From IMG/VR virus record IMGVR_UViG_3300002220_000047: a stretch of DNA of 64,000 bases; one strand, 5' to 3'. Source of the DNA: an uncultured virus (IMG/VR IMGVR_UViG_3300002220_000047). Its lineage: Duplodnaviria > Heunggongvirae > Uroviricota > Caudoviricetes. Below, in pieces: positions 3,948 through 44,942 of the stretch. Numbering within the stretch: position 1 is the stretch's first letter; every line of letters starts with the position of its first letter. The notes under the pieces were generated by a model, which worked only from the letters and a program-made list of their open reading frames with translations, searched no databases and was not told the origin of the DNA. A program made the position numbers and the translations under genes.

Positions 3948-3967
3948 AAATATATATTATTTATGTA
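3948..3967 (+). promoter_or_regulatory. Putative early (virion RNAP) promoter motif
   Basis: AAATATATATTAT motif, recurring at eight intergenic sites upstream of + strand non-structural units. Confidence 0.6.
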
Positions 3968-4010
3968 CAACTGGATCAATTGTAGTACAAAACAAACTGA
4001 GGAAACATTT

Positions 4011-4430
4011 ATGGAAGGTATCATCTGTCCGAAGGAATTAATTCCGAATTTGAAAAATCTAATAAGCTACTTGATAAGTAAAACTCTCGAAGCTAAAAAA
4101 GCTGAAATATCGAAATCGGAAGCTGAAGAGATGCGGCGGAAAGCCTATTCAAAGATGTACAATGCCGAAGAAGAACGTCGCGCTGGATATTATCAGTTCA
4201 CGAATTTGAATGAACGATCGGCGCGATGGACATCGATTCTCAAGTTGAAACCGGTAAGACTTCAAAATCCTGAAGATCCAAATAAAGCTTGGGGATTCGC
4301 TTACGGTGATTTGGTGGTATTCGGCAGTACCATCGAAAACGCGTCCATTATGTTTGACCTCGCGATGAAAGAAGATCGAGGTAACTACAAAAAACCAGCA
4401 GTAACGGAGGGAGAAGAATCAGATGCATGA
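4011..4430 (+). CDS. Hypothetical protein
   Basis: ORF 3963-4430; GAGGA RBS favours the ATG at 4011 (MEGIICPK). Confidence 0.7.
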   Translation: MEGIICPKELIPNLKNLISYLISKTLEAKKAEISKSEAEEMRRKAYSKMYNAEEERRAGYYQFTNLNERSARWTSILKLKPVRLQNPEDPNKAWGFAYGDLVVFGSTIENASIMFDLAMKEDRGNYKKPAVTEGEESDA

Positions 4431-4818
4431 CATGTGCAAGATGTTCCGGGACGATAACCTTGGAAAGATACCGGCGGCTGGATGGTGTGTAACCTGCCCG
4501 AAAAAAGCAGATGGTTGTTCGGCTGAAAAAGCTAATCAACCGGAAGCATTGCGGGTAGGTTCCGTTATCAAAATAAAAGTTAACGGCATGCGACATACGG
4601 TTAAGGTACTCGGATATAAAGATCGCATTAAGGATGGAGATTTCTGCAAATTCATCCGAGATGGTATATTTACAGAAACCGAATATAACGAAACGATAAT
4701 CGGTTCCTTACACTACCACTGTAACGATAAACACAATCGTGATAGATGGATGTTGACACAATCCATCGGCGATCTCATCTCTGAACATTCGTGTCGAGCA
4801 TATATTAGACCTGTCTGA
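4423..4818 (+). CDS. Hypothetical protein, Cys-rich N-terminus
   Basis: Overlaps upstream stop; C-x14-CxxC-x6-C cluster. Confidence 0.65.
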   Translation: MHDMCKMFRDDNLGKIPAAGWCVTCPKKADGCSAEKANQPEALRVGSVIKIKVNGMRHTVKVLGYKDRIKDGDFCKFIRDGIFTETEYNETIIGSLHYHCNDKHNRDRWMLTQSIGDLISEHSCRAYIRPV

Positions 4819-4890: not shown

Positions 4891-5349
4891 TTACAATTCA
4901 AAGATCCTAGAAAATCTCATGGAGAAATCTTCTTTTAATCCTTTTTCATGGAAGTCATCCATCATTGAATTGACAACCTCTTCAGATATTCCAGATTTCT
5001 GTACAAGAGTTTCTTTCATATTACGGACAGGATTCATATACAGTTCTGAAATATGTGAAGAAATTTCTTGAATGAACATCTGACCAAAAGAATACTCCTT
5101 AATAAAACTATTAGCGAGATCAAGAACTGCAACTCTCACTGCAGATTCTGGTTTACTTTCAACGCGCTGAAGATGTTCAGCGTATGTTTTAAGCAGAGCG
5201 GTAGCTGTAGTAAATCTAGCCTTTAACATCTGATCAGGAGCTAACTCCATTTTTTCCGCTACTTTAGGACGTCTCAGCAATGTCGACAATGCACCTTTCA
5301 TGGGGTTACTCCTTTCTATATTAAACGATTTTGAAATACAGCTTCCCAA
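4891..5349 (-). CDS. Hypothetical protein (true start probably 5301, MKGALS)
   Basis: ORF track; AAAGGAG RBS precedes the internal ATG. Confidence 0.7.
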   Translation of the reverse strand: MGSCISKSFNIERSNPMKGALSTLLRRPKVAEKMELAPDQMLKARFTTATALLKTYAEHLQRVESKPESAVRVAVLDLANSFIKEYSFGQMFIQEISSHISELYMNPVRNMKETLVQKSGISEEVVNSMMDDFHEKGLKEDFSMRFSRIFEL

Positions 5350-5363
5350 GCTTTCATATAATC

Positions 5364-5711
5364 TTACTCGCTAGTAGAAGATTGTTTGACTTCTTCCTCT
5401 TTGATCATTTTCTCTACTTCTTCAAAACCTTTCTGATAGGCAGAATCTTCATTAGGACTAATATGATAAAGAAGTCTAATAAATTCACCCGCATGGATCA
5501 ATTCTTCATTCATTACACTTAACATAACTTTCTTTACAATAGGATCTTCTGTCTTATCAGCTATCTTTTGATATGTAGCAATCGCCTCATATTCTGAGTT
5601 AATAGATGATCTTATTAACTGAGCTACTTCACTAGTAGTAAGAGGACCTTCTTTTTCAAGATTGATTTTTAAAGAATCGAGTCTTTCTATTGCAGCAAGT
5701 ATTCCTTTCAT
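5364..5711 (-). CDS. Ferritin-like (rubrerythrin/encapsulin-cargo type) diiron protein
   Basis: EYEAIATY ... EELIHAGEF...L..ISP.E...KG.EEV pattern typical of short ferritin-like proteins; GAGGTG RBS. Confidence 0.8.
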   Translation of the reverse strand: MKGILAAIERLDSLKINLEKEGPLTTSEVAQLIRSSINSEYEAIATYQKIADKTEDPIVKKVMLSVMNEELIHAGEFIRLLYHISPNEDSAYQKGFEEVEKMIKEEEVKQSSTSE

Positions 5712-5786
5712 TCTTAATCACCTCATCGTTGATTGTTTCCGTAATGCTATAGTATTTTGTATACAAGTGCAGATGGACAAGTTTTT

Positions 5787-5809
5787 AAATATATATAATT
5801 AATATAGAA
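5787..5809 (+). promoter_or_regulatory. Putative early promoter driving the non-coding unit
   Basis: AAATATATATAATTAATATAGAA, identical over 23 bp to 15764-15786. Confidence 0.65.
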
Positions 5810-6647
5810 TGACCAAATGGTTGTTGTATTACGGTATCAAAAGAATTCATGAGCATATCAATTATTCATCGCCGGATTCGAAACCAACGATGATTAGATA
5901 TGAAGGGTGGCCATTGAAGGGGCTTACTCTATCTGTGAGAATACACTGAGATTCTCAACCGCTAGAACAGATCATAAAAGGAAGTCCTGCTTCGATCAAA
6001 GTAGGATGAGCTGTCTTCAAGGCTACGCGAATAATGAAAAGGCGTAGTTCTAAGATCTAGTAATAGACCGAATAACCGAGACTAAGCATATGCGCATATG
6101 CGGAATATCGGCTGAACTCTGGAAATGTGCTTTCTAGAGACTTCAGAATACCGGTGACTGAAGCACATTCAGGTGTGAGAATACCATTATAGCTCACAAA
6201 ACTAGCGGGGCAGTCAATCTCAATTGGAGCGATTGTCGTATTTAAGATGTTCTGGGAGGCATACCGGATTCTTTTATGTTCGGTCCAGTCTCTGCCATGG
6301 CATTGGGATATTATGTCCCATTAGCCGAGCCGGCGTTATGACAACCTGTCTAACCCCGAACGACATCCGAGCATGCGGCCGATCTGGTATCTGGCGGCGT
6401 GGCGCGGGTGAGAGGTAGTGCCTCGGCCCGGCGGAGATGGCTTATCTGTTTCCGCCGGTGCCGAGGTTGTTAGTATTCGTGGAACAAAGAAGTACCCATA
6501 AAAAGCAGAACAAAGAAGTACCCATAAAAAGAAGTACCCGAAAACTGGCGCTGGTAGTTGTTGAGGGATTTCGTTTAAACTAGCCCGATAGGCTGGGACG
6601 ATTTCTTTCAACAACTACCAGCTGCCGCCTAATTTTATTTTTTTTTG
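5810..6647 (+). ncRNA. Candidate large structured non-coding RNA (~830 nt)
   Basis: No credible ORF; GC-richer than the flanks; many nested inverted repeats; promoter motif at the 5' end; long closing hairpin plus T-tract at the 3' end. Confidence 0.65.
6482..6539 (+). repeat. Direct repeat inside the candidate ncRNA
   Basis: GAACAAAGAAGTACCCATAAAAAG at 6482-6505 and 6508-6531; core AAAGAAGTACCC occurs three times. Confidence 0.9.
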
Positions 6648-6705
6648 TTAAAAATTACTATTGATGCTAATGATATGTTCTGAACTAAAACCAAAAGGAG
6701 AAAGA

Positions 6706-8877
6706 ATGCTATATACTTTATCGAATAAATTATACAAAGAAAAATATTCAAGAACGTCATCCATAACCAAAGAGTATATTGAGAATATGAAAGTATTCTT
6801 GTCTGCTAAATATCCTAATACTTCTATTGAAGAAATTGAAGAGTTTATAAAGAAAACTATTAAAGAAAGTTATAAACCTAGAAAAGTTGCATATCTATTC
6901 ACAGAAAGCCCAGGTAATGTAGATAAGAAAAAGAATGATCTTTTGTCAATGACTAATGAATTGAATAATGAGATCATCACTCCATATGGTTCAACGTTTG
7001 TACCAACATCCGAAGATGAATCTTTTTTTGTTGAGCATATTACTTCTAGACAGAATGAACGTAAAATTGTTAAGAAAGAAATGTTACTAGCAGAAGCTAA
7101 TAAAGATAAGGTTGCTGCGATGATCGGTAATCTTAAGCAGATGAATATCAAAATTGACATCAATGCTATTTCCGGTATTATGTTAGCCAATGTATTCTTT
7201 GGTAGTGCTGTAAGTTACAATAGCATTACTGCGTCAGCTAGACACAACATCATGTTGGGTTATAGTTATACGGAAATGGCTCTAATGGGAAATATGCATT
7301 TATATAGTGAAAACCAAGCAATCAATTGGGTAGTGAATCTTCTTAGGATATATCCTGGAGATACTACTATACAACTAGCAACTGAGAAGTTCTCATTGAT
7401 GCTTCCTTCACATGAAGATGTATTTGAGTTTCTATTTGATAACATTAAGATCTATGATAAATTTAGTAAGAATGAAAGTCTTAAAGAATTAATCAATACT
7501 TTATCTATTTATCAATTAGCTTTCATATTCTATGCATGTAATCTACACAACATCTTTACAAAGAATGATCATTTCAAAAACTTCTTTGATCGATGTTTTG
7601 ATACTGATATTGTCTTTTCTCAGATAAATGAATCAGATCCATATGAATCAGTCTTTAAGTTGAACGATAGTGCATTATTCATTTTAACCACCGCAATCCT
7701 CTGTGATGAAATCACTGGTGTGACGCTCGATAAAATAGACACTGAGCGACCCGACTTGGGTAGGAAAATCAAGTCCTTGTATAATCACCTTCAAGACACT
7801 TTGAGTGAACTAAATGACCTGATTGGAACATTCATGTTAATACCGATTGTTCCTAGTGATATCACTAATCATCAGAATATGATTAGAAAGACTACTATTC
7901 TTTCTGATACCGACAGTATTATTTTTACAAACGTAAGTTGGGTTAGATGGTATACTAATGATATTAGAGTAAATAAGAAATCTTATGCTATTAATGCATT
8001 GATGGTTTGTTTAACTAGTAAGATATTAGAACATGTATTTGCATATTCTTCAGCATGTATGAATATTGCTGAAAGTGGTATTAAAGATATTGAAATTAAA
8101 AACGAATTCATGTTTGATGTTTTCATTAGAACTTCAATGGCTAAGCATTATGCTGGGTATATAAAGTTTCGTGAAGGTAATGTTCTTAATCCATATAAGT
8201 TTGAGCTTAAAGGTAAGAACTTTATTGGTAGTGATTTATGTGACGATACTAGAAAGTTTGTAAAAGAATTCATTAGATACATCATGGATACTATTCTTAC
8301 AGATTATGAATTATCTTCTAGTGATCTTATTTCTAGAGTTATTGGATTCGAACAAAAAATTATTACATCGATATTGAATGGAGATACTTCATATCTTATT
8401 CAATCTCCTCTTAAACATGAAGGTGATTACGCTAATCCAGACGCATCACCTTATTTTTATTATCTCTTATGGAGAGATGTATTCTCTAGTAAATATGGGG
8501 TAATTAATTTACCTCAGAAATGTAAGGTAATCCCAATAGAAGATATTACTATTAAGAATATACATAGATTGGAATTCATGAAAGATATCGATATAAACAT
8601 CTATAATTCTTTAATAGAATTTATTAAGAAATATTCTAAGAAGAAGATCACTAGAATATTTGTACCTATGGGAATTCCTATTCCTATGGAAGTTAGACAA
8701 TTAGCCAATATGAACAAAGTAGTATCGATGAATTGTGCTCCTTTGTATCTGATGATGAGCAGTGTTGGTATTGTGAATTCAAGCCAAGGCGATAAGCTAG
8801 TATCGTTCTCAGACGAATACAAAAAACATTTAGAAATAACTGATTATCACGAACGTAATAATGTTAACGTGAGATAG
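6706..8877 (+). CDS. phiKZ-type divergent family B DNA polymerase (polymerase-domain subunit)
   Basis: Q..IKI.IN.ISG (motif B-like), SDTDS (motif C), KNEF...F.....KHY and ELKG motifs; AAAGGAG RBS before ATG 6706. Confidence 0.85.
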   Translation: MLYTLSNKLYKEKYSRTSSITKEYIENMKVFLSAKYPNTSIEEIEEFIKKTIKESYKPRKVAYLFTESPGNVDKKKNDLLSMTNELNNEIITPYGSTFVPTSEDESFFVEHITSRQNERKIVKKEMLLAEANKDKVAAMIGNLKQMNIKIDINAISGIMLANVFFGSAVSYNSITASARHNIMLGYSYTEMALMGNMHLYSENQAINWVVNLLRIYPGDTTIQLATEKFSLMLPSHEDVFEFLFDNIKIYDKFSKNESLKELINTLSIYQLAFIFYACNLHNIFTKNDHFKNFFDRCFDTDIVFSQINESDPYESVFKLNDSALFILTTAILCDEITGVTLDKIDTERPDLGRKIKSLYNHLQDTLSELNDLIGTFMLIPIVPSDITNHQNMIRKTTILSDTDSIIFTNVSWVRWYTNDIRVNKKSYAINALMVCLTSKILEHVFAYSSACMNIAESGIKDIEIKNEFMFDVFIRTSMAKHYAGYIKFREGNVLNPYKFELKGKNFIGSDLCDDTRKFVKEFIRYIMDTILTDYELSSSDLISRVIGFEQKIITSILNGDTSYLIQSPLKHEGDYANPDASPYFYYLLWRDVFSSKYGVINLPQKCKVIPIEDITIKNIHRLEFMKDIDINIYNSLIEFIKKYSKKKITRIFVPMGIPIPMEVRQLANMNKVVSMNCAPLYLMMSSVGIVNSSQGDKLVSFSDEYKKHLEITDYHERNNVNVR

Positions 8878-15763: not shown

Positions 15764-15786
15764 AAATATATATAATTAATATAGAA
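15764..15786 (+). promoter_or_regulatory. Putative early promoter
   Basis: 23-bp identical copy of 5787-5809. Confidence 0.65.
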
Positions 15787-15878
15787 GAGTTTAACTCATT
15801 TAATCTTCTTTAGATTTATATATACTAGTTTTATACTCAAAATACTAAAAACAACAATCTTTAATAAAGGTGCTAATC

Positions 15879-17219
15879 ATGAGTAAAATTTTGACCAATC
15901 TAGTAGGTAAGAAGATCGGAAGATTGATGGTGGTATTTAAAGTCAGCGAAAAAGGTAAAGATGATAAGTGGAAATGTATTTGCGACTGTGGAGAACAAGA
16001 AATAGTAGAAACCAAGGTGTTGCTGGAAGGAGTAAAAAAAGCATGTCCTAATCTTCTTATAGCTGCCGCAAATGAAAAATACATCGGAAAAAGATTTGGA
16101 CGTTTAGTAATCGAAAAGATAATTAGCTGTAGTGCGTCTGGAAGATTTACTGCAAAATGCCAATGCGATTGTGGAGGTTCTTCCGATTATCGTCTAGATT
16201 CTTTAGAATCTAAAAAATCTAGTTCATGTGGATGTATTAGATTTCTGAAGTCTAACTGGAATAGATTACATGGTCGTTGTTATGACAAAACCAATCTACA
16301 TTATCCAGAATATGGGGATAAAGGAATTGTGTTTGTTGAACGATGGCAAAATATCGAAAATTTCGTAAATGATACAATATCTGAATATAAGAGAGCATAC
16401 TCTATAGATTTTAAAGATAGCTCAAAAGATTTTGGACCAGAGAATTACAAATGGGTTCCTTCTGGAACTTCTACCAAAGTCGAAGAGAAATCAGAAGAAT
16501 CTAATATGGAAAGTCCTAAATATTCGCTTGTCTCTTCATCTGAAATTTTATCATTAGGACTTTCGAAGATTCAATTAGAGATGCTGACTATGGCCCGTTG
16601 TGTCAATGCTGGATTTATTTCAGCAGCTGATTTCAAATCGAAGGATATTCCAAACTCTACAATAACTTTTTCGCTTAAATCATTATGTGAAAAAGGATTG
16701 CTTATATCTTCTGGAAAAGGAAAAGGAATGAAATATTCCGCCGTTAAAGATCAAACAGCAGAGCAGCCTATTCCTGAGGCTAAGAAAGCTGTTATTGAAC
16801 TAGAAAATAAGAATGATATTGACTATTCTAAATATAAATCCTATATTGAAGTATTCGCTCATCGTATAAAGGACAACTTAGAAAATGAGCGGATCGCATC
16901 TGTAAGAGACTTTGTTTGTAGTACTAATAATCTGATCAAGAATCTTGATCTGGCAGGATCTGTTGAAGGTAATCCCGAAATCCCTTTGAGAAATCATGGT
17001 GGAATTTTGTTAATCGGATTGATTCATAAGAACTTGAATTACATACTAGACCAACTGCTATATTTCATAATCGAGAATGATGGAGACATTCGATTAACGA
17101 TGTCATGTCTTTCGAGATTACAGGAGATATTCTTTACCAATCCGACAGCTGAGAAACTTGATTATGTCAATCTCAGATTGAATGTTAGTTTGACAAAGAA
17201 CTCTCCGAGAAATCTCTGA
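15879..17219 (+). CDS. Multidomain protein: degenerate HNH-family endonuclease-like N-terminus fused to a winged HTH
   Basis: Two G.(K/R).GRL...C.CDCG repeats, SCGC, RCY....YPEYG.KGI....RW, SID.....F.PEN..W; later IPNSTITFSLKSLCEKGLLISSGKGKGMKYS (wHTH-like). Confidence 0.65.
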   Translation: MSKILTNLVGKKIGRLMVVFKVSEKGKDDKWKCICDCGEQEIVETKVLLEGVKKACPNLLIAAANEKYIGKRFGRLVIEKIISCSASGRFTAKCQCDCGGSSDYRLDSLESKKSSSCGCIRFLKSNWNRLHGRCYDKTNLHYPEYGDKGIVFVERWQNIENFVNDTISEYKRAYSIDFKDSSKDFGPENYKWVPSGTSTKVEEKSEESNMESPKYSLVSSSEILSLGLSKIQLEMLTMARCVNAGFISAADFKSKDIPNSTITFSLKSLCEKGLLISSGKGKGMKYSAVKDQTAEQPIPEAKKAVIELENKNDIDYSKYKSYIEVFAHRIKDNLENERIASVRDFVCSTNNLIKNLDLAGSVEGNPEIPLRNHGGILLIGLIHKNLNYILDQLLYFIIENDGDIRLTMSCLSRLQEIFFTNPTAEKLDYVNLRLNVSLTKNSPRNL

Positions 17220-22291: not shown

Positions 22292-22741
22292 ATGAGTATT
22301 CATCTCGGCGAAGCGCCATTCCTCGAATGTTCTACTAGAGGAGATCGTCGATTCTCTGCATATTGCGCTAGAATAAAATCTCGCGGTAATAGGACTATTG
22401 AAGAAATATATCAAGCTGCGAAAATCTTTGAAGTGGATGGAGATTTCGGAAAAAAATTAATAAGCGGGCTTTCTATCAAAGAAGCTAAAGGTAGGCAAGC
22501 CGTTAATCAGAGAGAAGTTTCTATGTTTTATTCTCTCCTCTGGAATGAATATATTTCGGAGAATCCTGAACTTTTCATTGTATTAGAAAACGCATCTGGT
22601 CTATCTGATATCTTTGGTCAGGAAGGTCATTGTTGCCAGTCGACAGAACTTTGGAAGATTAAGACATCAGGTATTTGCGTAACTGTTAAAAATTCAACCG
22701 ACGGAGGATCTTGGTTAGATGTATTCAAAAACAATGCATAG
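22292..22741 (+). CDS. NADAR-like protein (putative ADP-ribosylhydrolase fold)
   Basis: LECST.G..RFSA......TIEEIYQAAKIF ... LW..Y..ENPEL ... DIFG....CQ resembles DarT1-associated NADAR motifs. Confidence 0.5.
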   Translation: MSIHLGEAPFLECSTRGDRRFSAYCARIKSRGNRTIEEIYQAAKIFEVDGDFGKKLISGLSIKEAKGRQAVNQREVSMFYSLLWNEYISENPELFIVLENASGLSDIFGQEGHCCQSTELWKIKTSGICVTVKNSTDGGSWLDVFKNNA

Positions 22742-37716: not shown

Positions 37717-38859
37717 TTATTCTTTAAAGTACATATCTACGGCATTCTTTTCGCCTTTCTCTAAGACAAGACTTAATATACCAGTAATAAGAGGACTCAA
37801 AATAATTCGGTTAAAGATAGATTTCGCTCCGAAGATCGCATCTACTTTAGATCCATTCTCAGTTAAGATATCTCCACTCTCAACGTCACCAACGACGGAC
37901 TTTAGAGAAGAGTCAAATACGATTTTATCACCTACTCCACAGTCTACAGTAGTAGTGATATAGAAGATAATAAGAATATCCATTTCACCAAGAACCATTC
38001 CTCTGATTCTAGTTTCAGGAGGGATCTTATTTATAGAATTAAACTTATCTTCATTAGAAGAGTTCTTAGCAATTACAGCTCTTCGTTTAGTTGTTCTAGT
38101 TACTTCAGCGATAAACTTCTTAACGGATTCAGTAAGTTCATCTGATGTATAGAATACTTGGATGTCAGAAACAACGCCCTTATTCTTAGATTTATATTCA
38201 GCATATTTTAGTTCGTCTATTAGTTCATCTACTGAAGAGTCTTCCACAAATACAGAGGCTGTATCTTCGAATTCGAATTTACAAAGAACTGTATCATAGT
38301 CTACTTCTTGACCTATCTTAGCATATTCTTTTATGATCATATCAGATGATATTCTTACTGTTCTAGGATAGATACTTTTGAAGTCTAGTTTCTTGGAAAA
38401 CTCATTAGAGATCAAACAACTATCTTCTAATGTAACGTCTTTTTCCATTAGTGCTACTTTAGCATTTGTACCATGATTCCAACTTACAGTATCATGATAT
38501 TTATCATAGCTAAAGAAGCCTTTATGGTATGCAAGGATATTTCCTTTCTCTACTTTAAAACCAACCTTAACGAACTCAGATAATATCAATTCATGTTCTA
38601 GATAAGAACCGCTTACTTCGCCACGTATCTTTCCATATTGATAAGTAGAGATTTTACCATCTGCATATTTGACTTTTAGTATAGATTCCTTTTCATGAAT
38701 CTCAATGATCTCGCCTTTCATTCTGGCTTTAATAATAAACATAGAAGAGGCTTTTAGTGGTACTATCATTTCATATCCAGTACGTACTCTGGAAGGGGCG
38801 CTATGATCAGCTGGTACATGATGAGTCATCTGAATGTTAATAAAGTTGGCTCTTTTTGG
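37717..38859 (-). CDS. Virion RNA polymerase beta subunit, exon 2
   Basis: PKRANFINIQ..H, RTGYE, T.EDS, GVGDK.V....LKS and DAIFG.....NRI motifs. Confidence 0.9.
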   Translation of the reverse strand, partial: PKRANFINIQMTHHVPADHSAPSRVRTGYEMIVPLKASSMFIIKARMKGEIIEIHEKESILKVKYADGKISTYQYGKIRGEVSGSYLEHELILSEFVKVGFKVEKGNILAYHKGFFSYDKYHDTVSWNHGTNAKVALMEKDVTLEDSCLISNEFSKKLDFKSIYPRTVRISSDMIIKEYAKIGQEVDYDTVLCKFEFEDTASVFVEDSSVDELIDELKYAEYKSKNKGVVSDIQVFYTSDELTESVKKFIAEVTRTTKRRAVIAKNSSNEDKFNSINKIPPETRIRGMVLGEMDILIIFYITTTVDCGVGDKIVFDSSLKSVVGDVESGDILTENGSKVDAIFGAKSIFNRIILSPLITGILSLVLEKGEKNAVDMYFKE

Positions 38860-39732
38860 CGTTGTATTCAAATTCGTTCGTTAGACGAATCCCGCGCTTA
38901 ACTAAAGCACAGCTGCATGATTTCCATGCAGACTAGACTATATCTTCACCTCGATGAGGTGTCTCCCGTTTCCATGTCACTTGACATGTACTCGCTGATA
39001 AGGCGATAGTCGTTGGACCTCGAACCACTCTTACCACATTATTTTAATTAAACATTATAACCATGTTTTCGCTGGTGATCTTTCTCTGATAACCATTCCA
39101 GGTTATAATCAGAGTTATTCATAGAGTTAAGATCTATGTGATGAACGTCCATTTCGACCCAATTCAATGGCGGGTTACAAAATAGCAACGCTACCAAACG
39201 ACTAAGATTATACGTCACGAACTGACGATCTCTTCGTCTAATGGTTAGTTGAACACGACGATCATTTGCATAGGTCTTGACGAGTCCAGAATTAGTCCTA
39301 ACTCTACCTCTATCAGAAATGAAATATTCTGGATGATTCAATAGAGGTTTCCAGGATTCGCCAGCGATAGCTGCTACAGGCTCTTGATAAAATCTCAATA
39401 AACCCAAACGTTCTCGCTTTTTCTTTATGGATCCGACAGGTCTGTTTAATCTCATAGAAAGCTCTTCATCAAGCATTTCCAGATAATGTGTTCTTAAAAA
39501 CTCGGTTTCTTCAACCATGTAAGATTTTCCCAATCCCATACAAACCTCCTTAGAGTAGTATGTATGTGGCAGGAGTGGAGCTTTGGCTGCTGGTTGTCCA
39601 ATCTTTTGATTTCTTAAACCATCACGTTTATCATTACTGATTGCGTTGTGGTATCAAAAGCTCTAAGGAGATTCCAGACAATTAAGGAGAATTCCATCTG
39701 ATCATTGCTAATCAGTGGGACTTGATAATTCA
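38860..39732 (-). mobile_element. Group I intron (873 nt) in the RNAP beta gene
   Basis: P AATTGTCTGGAA (39683-39672), Q ACAACCAGCAG (within 39599-39585), R CCAACGACTA (39016-39007), S GAAGATATAGTC (38947-38936). Exon 1 ends in U, intron ends in G, and splicing restores ...NDD|PKRANF in frame. Confidence 0.92.
39048..39539 (-). CDS. Intron-encoded NUMOD4/HNH homing endonuclease
   Basis: E.WKP....EY.IS..GRVR (NUMOD4); RLVA..F...DVHHID.N..NN...NLEWL....H..KH (HNH); GGAGG RBS. Confidence 0.9.
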   Translation of the reverse strand: MGLGKSYMVEETEFLRTHYLEMLDEELSMRLNRPVGSIKKKRERLGLLRFYQEPVAAIAGESWKPLLNHPEYFISDRGRVRTNSGLVKTYANDRRVQLTIRRRDRQFVTYNLSRLVALLFCNPPLNWVEMDVHHIDLNSMNNSDYNLEWLSEKDHQRKHGYNV

Positions 39733-42700
39733 ATCATCGTTTGAGGCCCCAGGCATAAGCATAGAAGTATCGCTTAATATATTAGTAGGAGTAAGATCTT
39801 CTTGTTTTACATTGGTATTTAACATACCTCTAAGATTTTTAATATTTGGATTAGCTGATAAATAAGCTACCATAGCGACATTACCACTATCAGGAGTAGC
39901 TTCTGAAAGAATGCCTAGAGCATCTTTCGAAAACTTTCTATCTCTTTCAACGAAGGCTTCAGAAGATCTACCGCCGTATCCAGTATAAGATATCTTTGTT
40001 TGTTCTTTTATAGATTGGATAGGATTGATCTCTTCTTTCAGATCCATTGTCTGGTCCTGAATAATTCTCTGGAAGATAGCTTCAGTATTGATACTGAAAC
40101 TCTTATCCTTAAAGTTACTACTGAGATAATTAGCATACTGACGAGCTATTTCATTATAAGCAACTGCCGAGAACTTTTCAATAGATCTGATTCTGAAATT
40201 CTCAAGAGCTGCTGGATCGATCGTCTTTTTAGTTACTAGCATTTCTACAGCTCTAATAAGAAGATCTCTAGTATTAGTAGGTTCTCCCATCTCCTGAAGA
40301 ACTTCTCTAGTTATTGGATCGATAAAGAAATCGATGGTATTATCGATACCTTTCAAATAGTTGATACTCATTCCCTTATCTTGAAGCAATTGATAAAAGA
40401 TATCTTTGTCATCGAATTGATGAAATTCATAACTCTTAAGTGTGGTATAATGTCTAAGCCCACTAAGAATGAAGCTATTCAGTAATGGATATCTTTTGAA
40501 TACGATAGTCATATCTTTAAATGTAATCGGGATTTCATTAGTAGTAAGATTAAGAGATTTACCTCTAGGAACTGTTCTGTATTTAATATTTAAATATTTA
40601 AGTGTATTTGTCAAACCATATCGATAGGCTAAGATGAAGATGATAGGAATGTTCTTATCTAGTATTTTAAGATTACACCATTCATGAGGTACTGTGATTT
40701 TACCTTCTCCGAATATTAAAGAGAAAATAGACATACCTCTTTTTATGATATTCTCAGAGGATGTATTCACAATGAGAACTTCATTGGAATTATTTAAGAA
40801 GATATATTCTTCTTTAGAACGAACGACTTTACCTAAAAGAATACCGTATTTCAATTCTAGTTTTCTTGTAGCTTCTTCTTCTAGTTCGAAATGAGAAAAT
40901 CTATCATTTACACCAAAGAAGATTTCATATTCTTTAGTCTTTACAGAAAGAACCTTAGATCCAATAGCTGCATATTCATATGGAACAAAATGATCTATGA
41001 AGTTACCTAGATGAGATATCATTTCAATCTTATCTGAAGGATTATCAGTATTCCAATCATTGATGTTTTGCTTAAACACAGTACATATATCGTATATTCC
41101 TGTGGTTACTTTTTCTACGATGGTTTTGTTGAAGTTAGAGATCAATGAAACTCTAATAGGAGATATCTTACATATAGGAAGATTTACTAGTTGTTTCTTC
41201 ATGGAGAGTTTAACTCCATTCACTACGAAATAACCATCATCGTCAGGTACTGGTAATTTGAATCTTACAGTATGACGTTTTCCTTTTATGTCTTCAAATT
41301 GTACTTTAATATGTTTGATCTTATTAAAATTATTAAATTCGTCACTCTCTTCATAGTTTATAACAAATAAACCTTTGGTCTGAAAAGAGAGAACATTAGC
41401 TAATACATCTTTAGTGAATAATTTATCCATATAGTCAGAATCAAAATTAACCGAAGAAGCATCGATCATAGATTTGTCAGCCATCTTATCTTTAACGCTA
41501 TCCATTACATCTGGATTAATTATGATATCGATAGGAGAGCTAACGATCTTATCTATTGTTTCAACTTTACCGGAAGATGTTCTAATAGAAATAGTCTTAT
41601 GTTTCTCAGCTAAAATAGCAGCTCGTTTCTTCTGAGCTACTGTAGCTAAAGGATAGTTCTCTATGAATTTTTCAGTCTCTTCTCTAATATGTTGATAGAT
41701 AGGTTTAACATCCATATTTTTAGATGATTCTTTATAAGTAGTTTCCTCTACCACTGTTATTGAAGGAACTACTGGTTCGATTTTATCTTCATTTATAGTA
41801 ATAGGTTTACTAGAAACGATACCAGAACTATTTATTTTATCGAGTTCATCAATTTGAGCTAAAATCTTTTTATCTTCTTCAGTATTTAATTCCGAGTCAT
41901 CAAAAATAGGGTCTTCTTCATCGAACTTAAAATCGTCTTCAACAGACCCTGGTTTTGAGGTGTCTGGTACTTTAGAAAAACCAAATTTCATAGGTTTGAC
42001 TACAGTAGCCTTCTCATCTTCTTTTTCTACAATATTAGGTTTCTTATCACTCGGCGTAGCTACGATTTCTTCTTTTTGTTCAATTTCATTAATTTTTTCA
42101 AAATTCTCTACAAATTTATCAGCATTAATTGAAGGAGAATGAGTAAGTGCATATATCGATCCAAGTAATTTCCATACTTTAGATTTAGTATTTAATATCG
42201 AAGCCATCGTTGCCATATTGAAAGAAAAAGATCTTCCTTTATGAACGAGAACAAAATTCATTCGTTGTAAAGTATCATTATCTAATCTGGAGAAAAGAGA
42301 AAGACTAGATCTATTATCTAATAAAAATGTTAATAATTGAATTAAAAAGAAATAACAATGATTACTAGATATCAATCTAGAATTACTAATATCTCCAGAA
42401 GAAAACATTCCAAAGAAATTCGATTTAGGATAATACATCTCATCTATCAGTGGTATAAAAACAAAATGGTTCTTATTTCTCAGAACAGAAATTGACTTAA
42501 GCATATTCCAAAAGATAAATTGGAATTGATTATATTTGATTATATTTGAAGGCCCTAAAGCTAATATTCTGTAAAGAGGATTGTGATTATAAACAGTATA
42601 TACTTTATCGTTTTCATAATCAGCATTCCCTTCTAAAGCATTTATTTTTCTAATAAATTTTTTATTAGTTATATTAAAATCTACTAGAGAAATTGATAAT

Positions 42701-43011
42701 TTTGATAAATATATTCTCTTAGGAAATTGAGGAGTTGAGTTCCAATCTAATGTATCAAACCCATCAAAATGATATACAAACTTTCTCACAGATCTATTTT
42801 TTAAAAACGGATAGAGATCCATCCTAGGAACATCTATTGTTTGTTCAGGAGAAGCAACGTTATCGAGAACGTGCATAATAGAATTAAAAGGAAATAAGAA
42901 ATTTTCATCTAGTGTTAGATATTTTTTTGTTAACTCGGATTCTCGAAATACCATTACTCGTCTAAAAAAGACGCTATACGGTAAAAGAAATTCCATGCCG
43001 GCAGTGATCAT
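39733..43011 (-). CDS. Virion RNA polymerase beta subunit (phiKZ gp178-like), exon 1
   Basis: Q..NLPI.KISP.RV.L.SN.NK, F.DPIT, R.R..E, G.GGRS and G..SEATPDSG.V motifs. Confidence 0.9.
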
Positions 43012-43022
43012 ATTTTTTATCC

Positions 43023-44942
43023 TTATTCTTTTATCTCTGGTAATTTTGATGTTACCCATAAATTAGTAAGAGCTTGACCTACTAATGTACCAGCGCCAAG
43101 AGAGAAACCCCACATAGCGGGATTTAATTTATTAGTATGTAATAGTTTTAATAATACTCTACCTCTATTAATTATTCTATCTATGTAAAGAAGTCGATCA
43201 GCAACACCTACACCGGAGAGAGTAAGAAGATATTCTTGATAAGAAGAGTTCTGACCAAAAACAGTATCCCACGCACTTTGAGATCCATCAGCTAAAGCAA
43301 CATACATCATCGGGCTAAGATCTTTTACGGATATAGATACATCTACACAGGTAGGAAGAACGTTTTTATTCCAACCATATTCACTACTACCACGACGAAT
43401 ACTAATGCTTTCTATCATTCCTAGAGGAATAGACACCATACCTCTACTGTACATTCTAACTACAAATGGAGATGTATATGCATTCTGACCAACCGCTCTA
43501 GGAAACGACGCAGCCATTAACATTAAAAGAGGAACGTATATTGAATAAAATATCGAAACAGGATCACCGCTAGGTGATCTTAACTGAAAGTTAAAAGAAT
43601 AACTTTTAGAGAAAGAACTGCTTTTCCATACTTCAGGAATATCTACGAAACCAGATCCTTTAAATACTTCAAGAGGAGCATCCATTCCAATAACATCAGC
43701 AATACCATTAGCTAAACCAGACATAGCATCCATGAAACCACCGACAACACTTCCAGCGGCTCCACCAATAACATTACCTTCCATCATATTAAATTTAATA
43801 GAACGGCCTCTTTCGGCCTGAGAATTTATCATCTGAGCTACTTCAGATTCACCAGTAGTATTTGAAGCTGATTCAGAACTATCAGTTGATTTTTCCATAC
43901 GAAAACCAACGAATGCTTTACTTTCAGTTACTGCAGAATTAAATCCTGTAGCAAAACTACTAGCTGCGTTTCCTATAGAATTAAAGAATCCAGTATTTTT
44001 TTCATCTTTCACTATACCTATTAGTTTATTTAATTCTTCATCAGTAGAAATCGGATTACCATTAGCTCCTTCATCGTAGATACGTTTTTTATCTAGAATA
44101 GCTAATATATCTAATCCACGTTTTTTAAATAAGTCAGGAACACCTCTAGGATCTTTACCGAATTCGGTCTTTTCTTCAAACGCCTCGATATTAACTAAAC
44201 CCATATTAACAGCAACATGAGCTAGCATAGAATTTACTGTTTTGAAATATAAAGGCATCGTTGCTTTAAAATCATAATACTTAGAAGGAGAAATCATATT
44301 AGGCTTTGTTAATAAACCTAAGCCCCACTTAATTGCTATAAATGGAAAGAAGGCTATTGAAGTTGTAGCCCAGGCAGTTATTCTAAATAATGTTTTTAAT
44401 AAAGGAATCTCTCCAGTATTTTGAAGAGCCGCAAGATCTCTATCAATCAAACTTCCATAAAAAGATTTCATATCACTGAAATCAGGAACACCAAAACTCA
44501 TCCATACAATCTGTTGTTGTTCATCGAAGGTCTCATTATAAACACGTCCTAGACCTTCAGTGCATGAATATTCATTATTACCAACAACTGCAGTCATCGG
44601 ATGAATGATATCGTCATTTTCATTAAACTGATAATAACAATTAATTGCTTCATTTCCACCTAATGAAGTATCTCTTCTTTTAGGTTTATCTTTACGATCG
44701 TCTAACGCAATACCTATTGCTTTTTTCAGAAGATCGTGTGCAACTACAGTAGGATCTAATCCTTGACTTCTACCAGCTACACTAAATCCATCTTCTCCGA
44801 TTGGAGCTTTCGTGAAATTAGGATCTTTGAACAATTCATCGCTATTAGAATAAGTCATAGCCTCTTCATGACTTTTAAAGCTTGCACCAATTCTAGTATT
44901 TACTATATATTTAAGAGTACTTCGTTCAAACGTATCATTCAT
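43023..44942 (-). CDS. phiKZ-type virion structural protein (gp182-like position)
   Basis: DTSLGGNEAIN, FGVP.F, G.G..DIPEVW..S, YTSPF and GMI.S.SI.RG motifs; follows the tail lysin gene. Confidence 0.7.
   Translation of the reverse strand: MNDTFERSTLKYIVNTRIGASFKSHEEAMTYSNSDELFKDPNFTKAPIGEDGFSVAGRSQGLDPTVVAHDLLKKAIGIALDDRKDKPKRRDTSLGGNEAINCYYQFNENDDIIHPMTAVVGNNEYSCTEGLGRVYNETFDEQQQIVWMSFGVPDFSDMKSFYGSLIDRDLAALQNTGEIPLLKTLFRITAWATTSIAFFPFIAIKWGLGLLTKPNMISPSKYYDFKATMPLYFKTVNSMLAHVAVNMGLVNIEAFEEKTEFGKDPRGVPDLFKKRGLDILAILDKKRIYDEGANGNPISTDEELNKLIGIVKDEKNTGFFNSIGNAASSFATGFNSAVTESKAFVGFRMEKSTDSSESASNTTGESEVAQMINSQAERGRSIKFNMMEGNVIGGAAGSVVGGFMDAMSGLANGIADVIGMDAPLEVFKGSGFVDIPEVWKSSSFSKSYSFNFQLRSPSGDPVSIFYSIYVPLLMLMAASFPRAVGQNAYTSPFVVRMYSRGMVSIPLGMIESISIRRGSSEYGWNKNVLPTCVDVSISVKDLSPMMYVALADGSQSAWDTVFGQNSSYQEYLLTLSGVGVADRLLYIDRIINRGRVLLKLLHTNKLNPAMWGFSLGAGTLVGQALTNLWVTSKLPEIKE

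Follow-up and report, generated by a model that had tools for sequence, protein, structure and literature searches.

Large structured RNAs of phages and the locus compared with them

To our knowledge, the large structured RNAs carried by phages (GOLLD, ROOL, and the transcript of phage ICP1) are abundant, and none of them has a known function. Here we describe a candidate for another such RNA in the uncultured caudoviricete IMGVR_UViG_3300002220_000047 (IMG/VR). The window, that is, the whole stretch of 64,000 nucleotides (nt) that we analyzed, comes from a metagenome and represents part of a phiKZ-like jumbo phage; it encodes split multisubunit RNA-polymerase beta genes, a phiKZ-type internal head protein, and a tail-tube protein. 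The element lies in a gene-free gap directly upstream of the DNA polymerase gene. We favor the reading, to which we give about an even chance, that this gap is a stand-alone structured RNA gene of ∼835 nt; judged by its sequence, the element is a probable lineage-specific accessory cassette of the phage.

GOLLD (RF01998) and ROOL (RF03087) resemble the element in that they are phage borne, hundreds of nt long, and multidomain, form their own transcription units, and have no known function, as far as the available text of two sources goes (PMC7567579; 10.1101/2024.12.08.627333). However, neither model matches the element at its gathering score or at E ≤ 10, no tRNA genes lie near the element, and the element is a single orphan, not a family. 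The accessible part of the first of these two sources describes the most abundant transcript of phage ICP1 as an ∼800-nt noncoding RNA (ncRNA), of unknown role, from a ∼1-kb gap between gp139 and gp140 that lacks open reading frames (ORFs) (PMC7567579). The likeness is one of size and setting (∼800 nt from a ∼1-kb ORF-less gap in a lytic phage), but the ICP1 transcript has expression data, whereas our element is known from sequence alone. No phage record in our collection resembles the element, although the presence of ICP1 records in that collection was not checked. For phiKZ itself, the available text of a differential RNA sequencing (dRNA-seq) study gives only one predicted small RNA (sRNA), of 75 nt (PMC8244752), and a limited full-text search gave no report of a large ncRNA from any phiKZ-like jumbo phage.

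A discrete, noncoding unit fills the largest gap in the window

The gap (5712-6705) is flanked by two divergent start codons, at 5711 for a minus-strand gene and at 6706 for the polymerase. The parts of the locus are as follows.

5364-5711, minus strand: encapsulated-ferritin-like (EncFtn-like) gene beside the RNA element, with Pfam matches to Rubrerythrin and EncFtn-like
5807-6647, plus strand: predicted transcript of about 830-840 nt, its start placed in 5807-5816 and its end in the T-tract
6706-8877, plus strand: divergent family B DNA polymerase (PF20286, E 4.4e-110), complete at its N terminus, with relatives that align from residue 4

The first-pass annotation, made from the letters of the window, had singled out this interval as the only gap of its size, as GC-richer than its flanks, and as free of any ORF with a ribosome-binding site, and in all three respects it was right. 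The gap is the largest intergenic stretch in the gene map (the runner-up has 403 nt) of a window whose coding density is ∼91% and whose intergenic share is 9.6%. Its GC content, taken in 200-nt steps, is 0.385 to 0.575 over 5800-6599, compared with 0.30 to 0.32 just upstream and 0.245 to 0.325 just downstream. The longest ORFs between 5711 and 6706 have only 64 (plus strand) and 92 (minus strand) amino acids (aa), and no convincing frame opened in the gap when TGA or TAG was taken as a sense codon. In a Pfam search with nine six-frame pieces and the neighboring proteins, nothing better than E 0.016 was found in the gap. Three-base periodicity is absent from the element (chi2 7.0, P = 0.32) and is present at P ≤ 2.4e-10 in five coding controls, one of which has 52% GC. 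The hydrophobic stretch of the 92-aa minus-strand ORF is the tandem repeat of the element read backwards; a HMMER search with this ORF against 1.84 billion representatives returned only itself and one low-complexity match, and a search of the Atlas gave no usable match.

It is very unlikely that the element instead codes for one or more small proteins, for example, by nearly leaderless translation of a 46-aa frame that begins at ATG 5809. This ATG sits 2 nt past the promoter core described below, and a transcript starting at the final G of that core would have a 2-nt leader; but the frame has no ribosome-binding site, no periodicity, and no Pfam match, and it accounts for just 141 of the ∼840 nt. 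Moreover, the ATG is created only at the junction between the promoter 23-mer and the element; the other copy of that 23-mer has none.

The predicted RNA is multidomain and folds better than coding controls

The minimum free energy (MFE) structure of the plus strand divides the element into the following parts.

5854-5957, plus strand: three 5' hairpins, present as MFE helices with pair probabilities of 0.88-0.99
5854-5902, plus strand: first of these hairpins, with inner stem 5866-5871/5888-5893 and the T-loop-like loop AUUCGAAA
5959-6208, plus strand: multibranch Domain A, closed by CCGCUAG/CUAGCGG (pair probability 0.99)
6238-6521, plus strand: GC-rich Domain B (GC peak 0.575), closed by UGUUCUG/CAGAACA (6248-6254/6506-6512), with helix probabilities of 0.90-0.99
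6486-6544, plus strand: three tandem AAAGAAGTACCC copies in an A-rich tract, spaced 26 and 16 nt from start to start
6546-6647, plus strand: terminator, a branched hairpin (6546-6627) with a 19-bp perfect helix, followed by TAATTTTATTTTTTTTTG

Most MFE helices have pair probabilities above 0.9. Domain B holds a 21-bp GC hairpin (6420-6467), and two hairpin loops of Domain A, UGUGC (6126-6130) and GCACA (6163-6167), are complementary, so that they might pair by kissing or, alternatively, form a 9-bp helix. Of the stems listed by the first-pass annotation, all except one recur in the MFE structure, at pair probabilities of 0.74-0.99; the one that does not is AATGTGCTT/AAGCACATT, whose segments form instead the two hairpins with the complementary 5-nt loops. 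The 15-bp stem with T-tract that it had placed at the 3' end proved to be part of a longer perfect helix of 19 bp (arms 6550-6568/6604-6622) with further pairs. As for repeated motifs, AAAGAAGTACCC has three matches in the window, all at 6486-6544, against 0.77 expected, and 4 of 100 shuffles also reach three. GAAUA (GAATA in DNA) occurs six times in 5939-6183, within Domain A (1.56 expected); five of the six copies are located mainly in the loop or junction that immediately follows a helix, and there are three copies of AGAAUAC (AGAATAC). Neither of these two counts exceeds those of the commonest k-mers of shuffled sequence, and they are not significant. The element is single copy in the 64 kb, with no paralogue elsewhere in the window.

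Folding stability was compared with that of shuffled sequence, with 10 to 40 shuffles per test and 20 for the body z scores, and the element proved more stable than its shuffles. Its plus strand has an MFE of −307.7 kcal/mol against a shuffle mean of −236.0 (standard deviation 7.6), or z −9.40, and none of 20 shuffles was as stable; the minus strand has z −6.32. Much of the whole-element z score comes from the terminator, over which a 150-nt segment has z −9.2. The body without the terminator (5810-6480) has z −4.56 and −4.25 in two runs on the plus strand and z −3.08 and −4.52 on the minus strand. Ten 671-nt coding controls from the same window range from z +0.90, the value of a coding segment with 52% GC, to z −3.04, and a group I intron region in the same window reaches z −5.67 on one strand and −5.80 on the other. 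Overall, the folding signal of the element exceeds that of all the coding controls but falls somewhat short of that of a genuine ribozyme region, which supports a structured RNA without being decisive. The signal is spread along the element: ten overlapping 150-nt segments over 5825-6574 all have z −1.5 to −3.0 on the plus strand, and segments past the terminator (6575 onward) are near 0, as are most of those upstream.

G-T pairs in the stems had been taken as a sign of selection at the RNA level. G-U pairs make up 35 of the 268 MFE pairs, and in the body there are 27 on the plus strand versus 17 on the minus strand; however, this excess arises because the plus strand is richer in G and U, and the minus-strand body folds about as well, so the pairs are a weak argument for the plus strand.

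The element and the polymerase gene have their own copies of a promoter-type motif

The 23-mer at which the element starts had been reported as identical to 15764-15786, and the copy is indeed exact (two matches in the window against 0.03 expected). Its 3' part belongs to a recurrent 8-nt motif, found at these positions:

5787-5809, plus strand: 23-mer promoter element, of which 5800-5807 (TAATATAG) is the promoter core TA[AC]TAT[AT]G
6656-6663, plus strand: promoter core of the polymerase gene itself (TACTATTG), 42 nt upstream of ATG 6706 and downstream of the RNA terminator
5747-5754, minus strand: promoter core (TACTATAG) of the divergent EncFtn-like gene
5316-5323, minus strand: promoter core TAATATAG, directly before AAAGGAG and Met17 of gene w4891
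15777-15784: promoter core before an HNH endonuclease gene
35318, minus strand: promoter core, a further notable site

Thus, within the window the core precedes the polymerase, EncFtn-like, w4891, and HNH endonuclease genes. Upstream of the polymerase gene it is exact in four of the seven closest relatives, at positions −37 to −45 relative to codon 1, and a core with one mismatch was spotted by eye in a fifth. Matches to the core are intergenic in 5 of 13 cases in the window, against 9.6% intergenic DNA (P = 0.0044), in 8 of 35 in related contig G001 (P = 7.5e-4), and in 3 of 11 in G002 (P = 0.017), an enrichment that is inflated, since all motif letters but the final G are A or T and intergenic DNA is itself rich in these bases. 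A scan for sigma-70 promoters gave four sites versus 5.4 expected and was uninformative. In the available portion of one review, the early promoters of jumbo phages are described as AT-rich motifs of ∼10 nt located near −10, and the late promoters of phiKZ as a TATG that overlaps the start site (PMC7598289); on the basis of these layouts, as given there, we place the transcript start within 5807-5816 and leave its temporal class unassigned. The earlier description of the element as early transcribed is a putative one, drawn solely from the promoter core common to the element and the polymerase gene.

The polymerase keeps its own core downstream of the terminator, which argues that the element is a separate unit: with promoter, terminator, and INDEPENDENCE from the polymerase gene, it stands apart and does not form the leader of the polymerase. 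We therefore consider it quite improbable that the element acts in cis on the polymerase, as a long regulatory leader or an attenuator, with transcription from 5800 passing the terminator under some condition. Such a leader would fit the common strand, the common promoter class, and the 59 nt between the end of the terminator and the polymerase ATG, but the polymerase core occupies the same position as in relatives without the element, the terminator itself is very strong, and there is no match to a riboswitch or leader family.

The second copy of the 23-mer lies right behind a terminator and ∼95 nt upstream of the free-standing HNH endonuclease gene (449 aa); the 23-mer and this gene together span 15764-17219. 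That two accessory cassettes carry an identical promoter may reflect shared origin or shared regulation. For w4891 (4891-5349, minus strand), the listed TTG start is probably wrong: relatives align from about residue 17-39, and Met17 corresponds to an ATG at 5301.

The element matches no known RNA family and is not a recognizable intron

No Rfam family (4,227 families, Rfam 15) matches the 64,000 bases at its gathering score, and the best matches in 5600-6800 (E 0.35-7.9) are to unrelated eukaryotic or sRNA models. ARAGORN found no tRNA or transfer-messenger RNA (tmRNA) genes in the window. Together with the lack of any Intron_gpI match in the region at E ≤ 10, this agrees with the first-pass annotation, which had recognized no tmRNA or intron signature.

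The window does contain a group I intron with an HNH ORF, and the second 23-mer copy drives a free-standing HNH endonuclease gene; both would suit a remnant or relative of a mobile ribozyme, such as a group I intron that lacks its endonuclease or a self-splicing element of another type. We regard this as scarcely probable at all: the same kind of scan that finds nothing in 5600-6800 finds the real intron (38913-39401, minus strand, 34.9 bits, E 6.2e-07), the element has no flanking exons but lies between divergent, complete genes, and there is no intron signal around the HNH gene at 15.9 kb.

The real intron (38872-39729, minus strand) carries an HNH/NUMOD4 endonuclease ORF (39048-39539) and appears to split an RNA-polymerase beta-like gene between 37717-38871 and 39730-43059; the two flanking ORFs match directly adjoining parts of the PHROG 3148 profile, positions 3-1050 and 1051-1421. 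The intron scores 34.9 bits, below the Intron_gpI gathering score of 50, so the default Rfam scan did not report it.

The element is absent from the closest relatives

Cultured phages are remote from the window: tblastn gave 299 records, all below 60% identity, the best among the matches listed being 24-27% identical, and the nearest metagenomic polymerases are 48% identical. The closest relatives at this locus are seven (L001, L002/L016, L015, L017, L018, L019, and L021; polymerase 41-48% identical), and in all of them the gene order is w2318 (plus), w4891 (minus), polymerase (plus), and then w9456 onward. Found only in the window at this site are two GC-richer genes at 3963-4818, the EncFtn-like gene, and the RNA element. 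The EncFtn-like protein scores E 9.8e-20 against NCBIfam EncB_fam, which is under the cut-off of that model; used as a guide to context, it gave no relatives among viral contigs and no homologue by word index. Its gene has a phage-like GC content, unlike the adjoining RNA region, a difference that would fit a GC content held by structure and not recent transfer alone. The genes at 3963-4818 (155 and 131 aa; GC 0.44-0.485) match no family and are absent from the syntenic slot of the closest relatives; they constitute a second lineage-specific insert, on the opposite side of the conserved w4891.

The identical sequence is present in only four DNA runs, all of one hydrocarbon-metagenome study, and no RNA sequencing run with the window sequence is listed among the four. 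No sequence variants occur inside the element among the contigs aligned to it. In the probable source run, a 195-nt low-depth contig is ∼90% identical to 5613-5807 (19 differences); it spans the start of the EncFtn-like gene and the promoter region and stops at the repeated 23-mer. A second, diverged strain thus exists in the sample, and its deeper assembly could yield the first homologue of the element.

The proposal of a large structured ncRNA with its own promoter and terminator stands in so far as the locus is a discrete noncoding plus-strand unit with a promoter-type motif, a structured body, and a strong terminator. From these features we infer that the element is transcribed, that its fold is under selection, and that it has a function. 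A series of results weighs against a stand-alone RNA gene. Homologues were looked for widely and not found: blastn in its distant mode gave nothing against 50,697 INPHARED phage records; blastn and nhmmer gave nothing against 41 loci around related polymerases; and BLAST against 14 whole IMG/VR viral records gave a best E of 0.064. A single-sequence covariance model (R1, 6057-6198) matched none of 15 records and only itself among 17 sources. In the genome of jumbo phage RaK2 (NC_019526), which belongs to a different lineage, neither BLAST (best E 0.25) nor nhmmer --max nor R1 detected any similarity to the element, and all that turned up were ORF-free gaps of weak resemblance at 224-235 kb. 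Pattern scans of viral contigs for the tandem repeat gave at least 120 loci, which were only short chance matches by BLAST; an 18-mer of the T-loop-like hairpin had no loci, and a 17-mer of the GC hairpin had six, all of them chance matches in GC-rich phages. As a consequence, there is no covariation to support the helices. In the seven closest relatives, the spacing between w4891 and the polymerase is only ∼110-200 nt and the element is absent, and no GC-raised, ORF-free island of at least 250 nt occurs in the available contigs of five relatives (∼343 kb); the element is thus a lineage-specific accessory insertion, dispensable for the clade. In a second sample, identical contigs span only 5691-6065 and 6082-6241, and the GC-rich 3' part, 6242-6638, is seen only in the probable source run. 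The promoter core is not enriched intergenically in the more distant contigs G003, G004, and G006. With respect to folding, 14% of the 150-nt strand-segments across the window reach z ≤ −2 (10 shuffles), the z scores leave the strand undecided, and the body exceeds the coding controls only modestly, with few shuffles (20).

Several of these results would also suit decaying or neutral foreign DNA, a GC-rich fragment acquired at a hypervariable site for accessory genes that is transcribed or not and whose RNA has no function under selection; we take this possibility seriously but think it unlikely. It would explain why all seven closest relatives lack the element at the syntenic site, why the same slot holds other lineage-specific inserts (the genes at 3963-4818 and the EncFtn-like gene), why no search found a homologue, and why the body z score is just moderately past those of the coding controls. 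However, a protein remnant was looked for and none was detected, and the coding control with 52% GC folds no better than its shuffles. An exact promoter copy at one end and a strong terminator at the other also give the unit clean borders, and 0.95 kb of junk would be unusual at this coding density.

The position of the element directly upstream of the polymerase gene also suggests a replication origin or primer-RNA region, in which the repeats would act as iterons beside an inverted repeat and an AT-rich tract and the promoter would make an activating or priming transcript. The three direct repeats at 6486-6544 are indeed followed by an inverted repeat with 25-nt arms and then by an AT-rich tract (0.245-0.27 GC), and distant relatives (L008, L025, L026, and L027, with ∼1.3 kb, as well as L013, L036, and L038) also have long, ORF-poor, hairpin-rich regions upstream of the polymerase. 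An origin would be expected to be conserved, yet the closest relatives have only the short spacer here, the distant relatives' regions share no sequence with the element, the repeat spacings appear not to be helical multiples, and 650 nt of structured body would be left unexplained. We therefore regard an origin as distinctly unlikely.

The regions in distant relatives are of some interest in themselves. In L008 (3349-4646), and also in L025, L026, and L027 (polymerase ∼32% identical), a ∼1.3-kb ORF-poor, AT-rich region lies directly upstream of the polymerase; it has internal repeats of ∼190 nt and several very stable hairpins (150-nt z −6 to −9), and it matches no Rfam family and does not resemble the window element. 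In L038, a strongly folding region (4060-4720, z −10.6) that is GC-rich (up to 0.60) and has a terminator lies just upstream of the polymerase; this region includes a plausible ORF of 79 aa (4186-4425) that has a good ribosome-binding site, and a cluster of six tRNAs (886-1684) lies 2.5 kb further upstream.

A possible role for the element

If the gap is a stand-alone RNA gene, transcription would start at or just after the core TAATATAG (5800-5807), a promoter of the polymerase class, and the transcript would fold into three 5' hairpins and two multibranch domains. Next the A-rich tract with its three AAAGAAGUACCC repeats would be exposed, and transcription would stop at the long hairpin and U-tract; the polymerase would be transcribed separately from its own downstream core. 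Our best guess is an RNA that acts in trans by binding protein, as a sponge, decoy, or scaffold; its structured body would provide stability and shape, and its repeat tract would be the binding platform, offering a repeated single-stranded site. The order of the parts (hairpins, Domain A, Domain B, AAAGAAGUACCC tract, and terminator) suggests such a stable scaffold that presents repeats to a protein. An antisense role finds no complementarity in duplex energies against the 5' regions of the polymerase (z −1.56), EncFtn-like (z +0.48), and HNH (z −1.30) genes.

The 3' module resembles a type III antitoxin RNA or pseudo-ToxI in having tandem short repeats followed by a Rho-independent terminator, the layout by which such RNAs are defined in the accessible text of one source (PMC5086642): three repeat copies, the hairpin at 6546-6627, and the T-tract follow one another. 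According to the same portion of that source, phage TE escapes ToxIN through a pseudo-ToxI repeat array (PMC5086642). Unlike a type III antitoxin locus, however, the element is followed by a polymerase gene and not by a toxin gene, its repeats are few and short (only ∼2.6 repeats of 26 nt), and the antitoxin layout leaves its 650-nt structured body unaccounted for. One scan of genome contigs for a matching host array gave 28 loci with tandem AAGAAGTACCC, mostly coding for EEVP-type peptide repeats, and the 26-nt unit was repeated in none; toxin genes beside the few noncoding arrays were not looked for.

A bolder proposal, which we rate as rather improbable, is that with this element a new class of large, ornate RNAs of phages comes into view: a multidomain RNA of ∼835 nt from a jumbo phage of the nucleus-forming type, expressed from a polymerase-class promoter as an anti-defense decoy, whose exposed AAAGAAGUACCC tract would imitate a type III antitoxin array of the host or sequester a nuclease or chaperone of the host that binds RNA, and whose body would protect and present the tract. 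At the level of class, we describe the element as a plausible orphan among large phage-borne structured RNAs, a single sequence with no family, and it is a lead only: one metagenomic sequence from an uncultured phage. Should it prove to be a real RNA, it would indicate that such RNAs can be accessory cassettes in variable slots that also take protein morons, and its repeat tract and terminator would offer a compact candidate for RNA-based counter-defense.

Elsewhere in the window, a 149-aa protein (22292-22741) has a subthreshold match to the DarT1-associated NADAR antitoxin domain (PF22397, E 1.5e-05, 25 bits versus a cut-off of 27); judged by this match, its gene may be a counter-defense gene.

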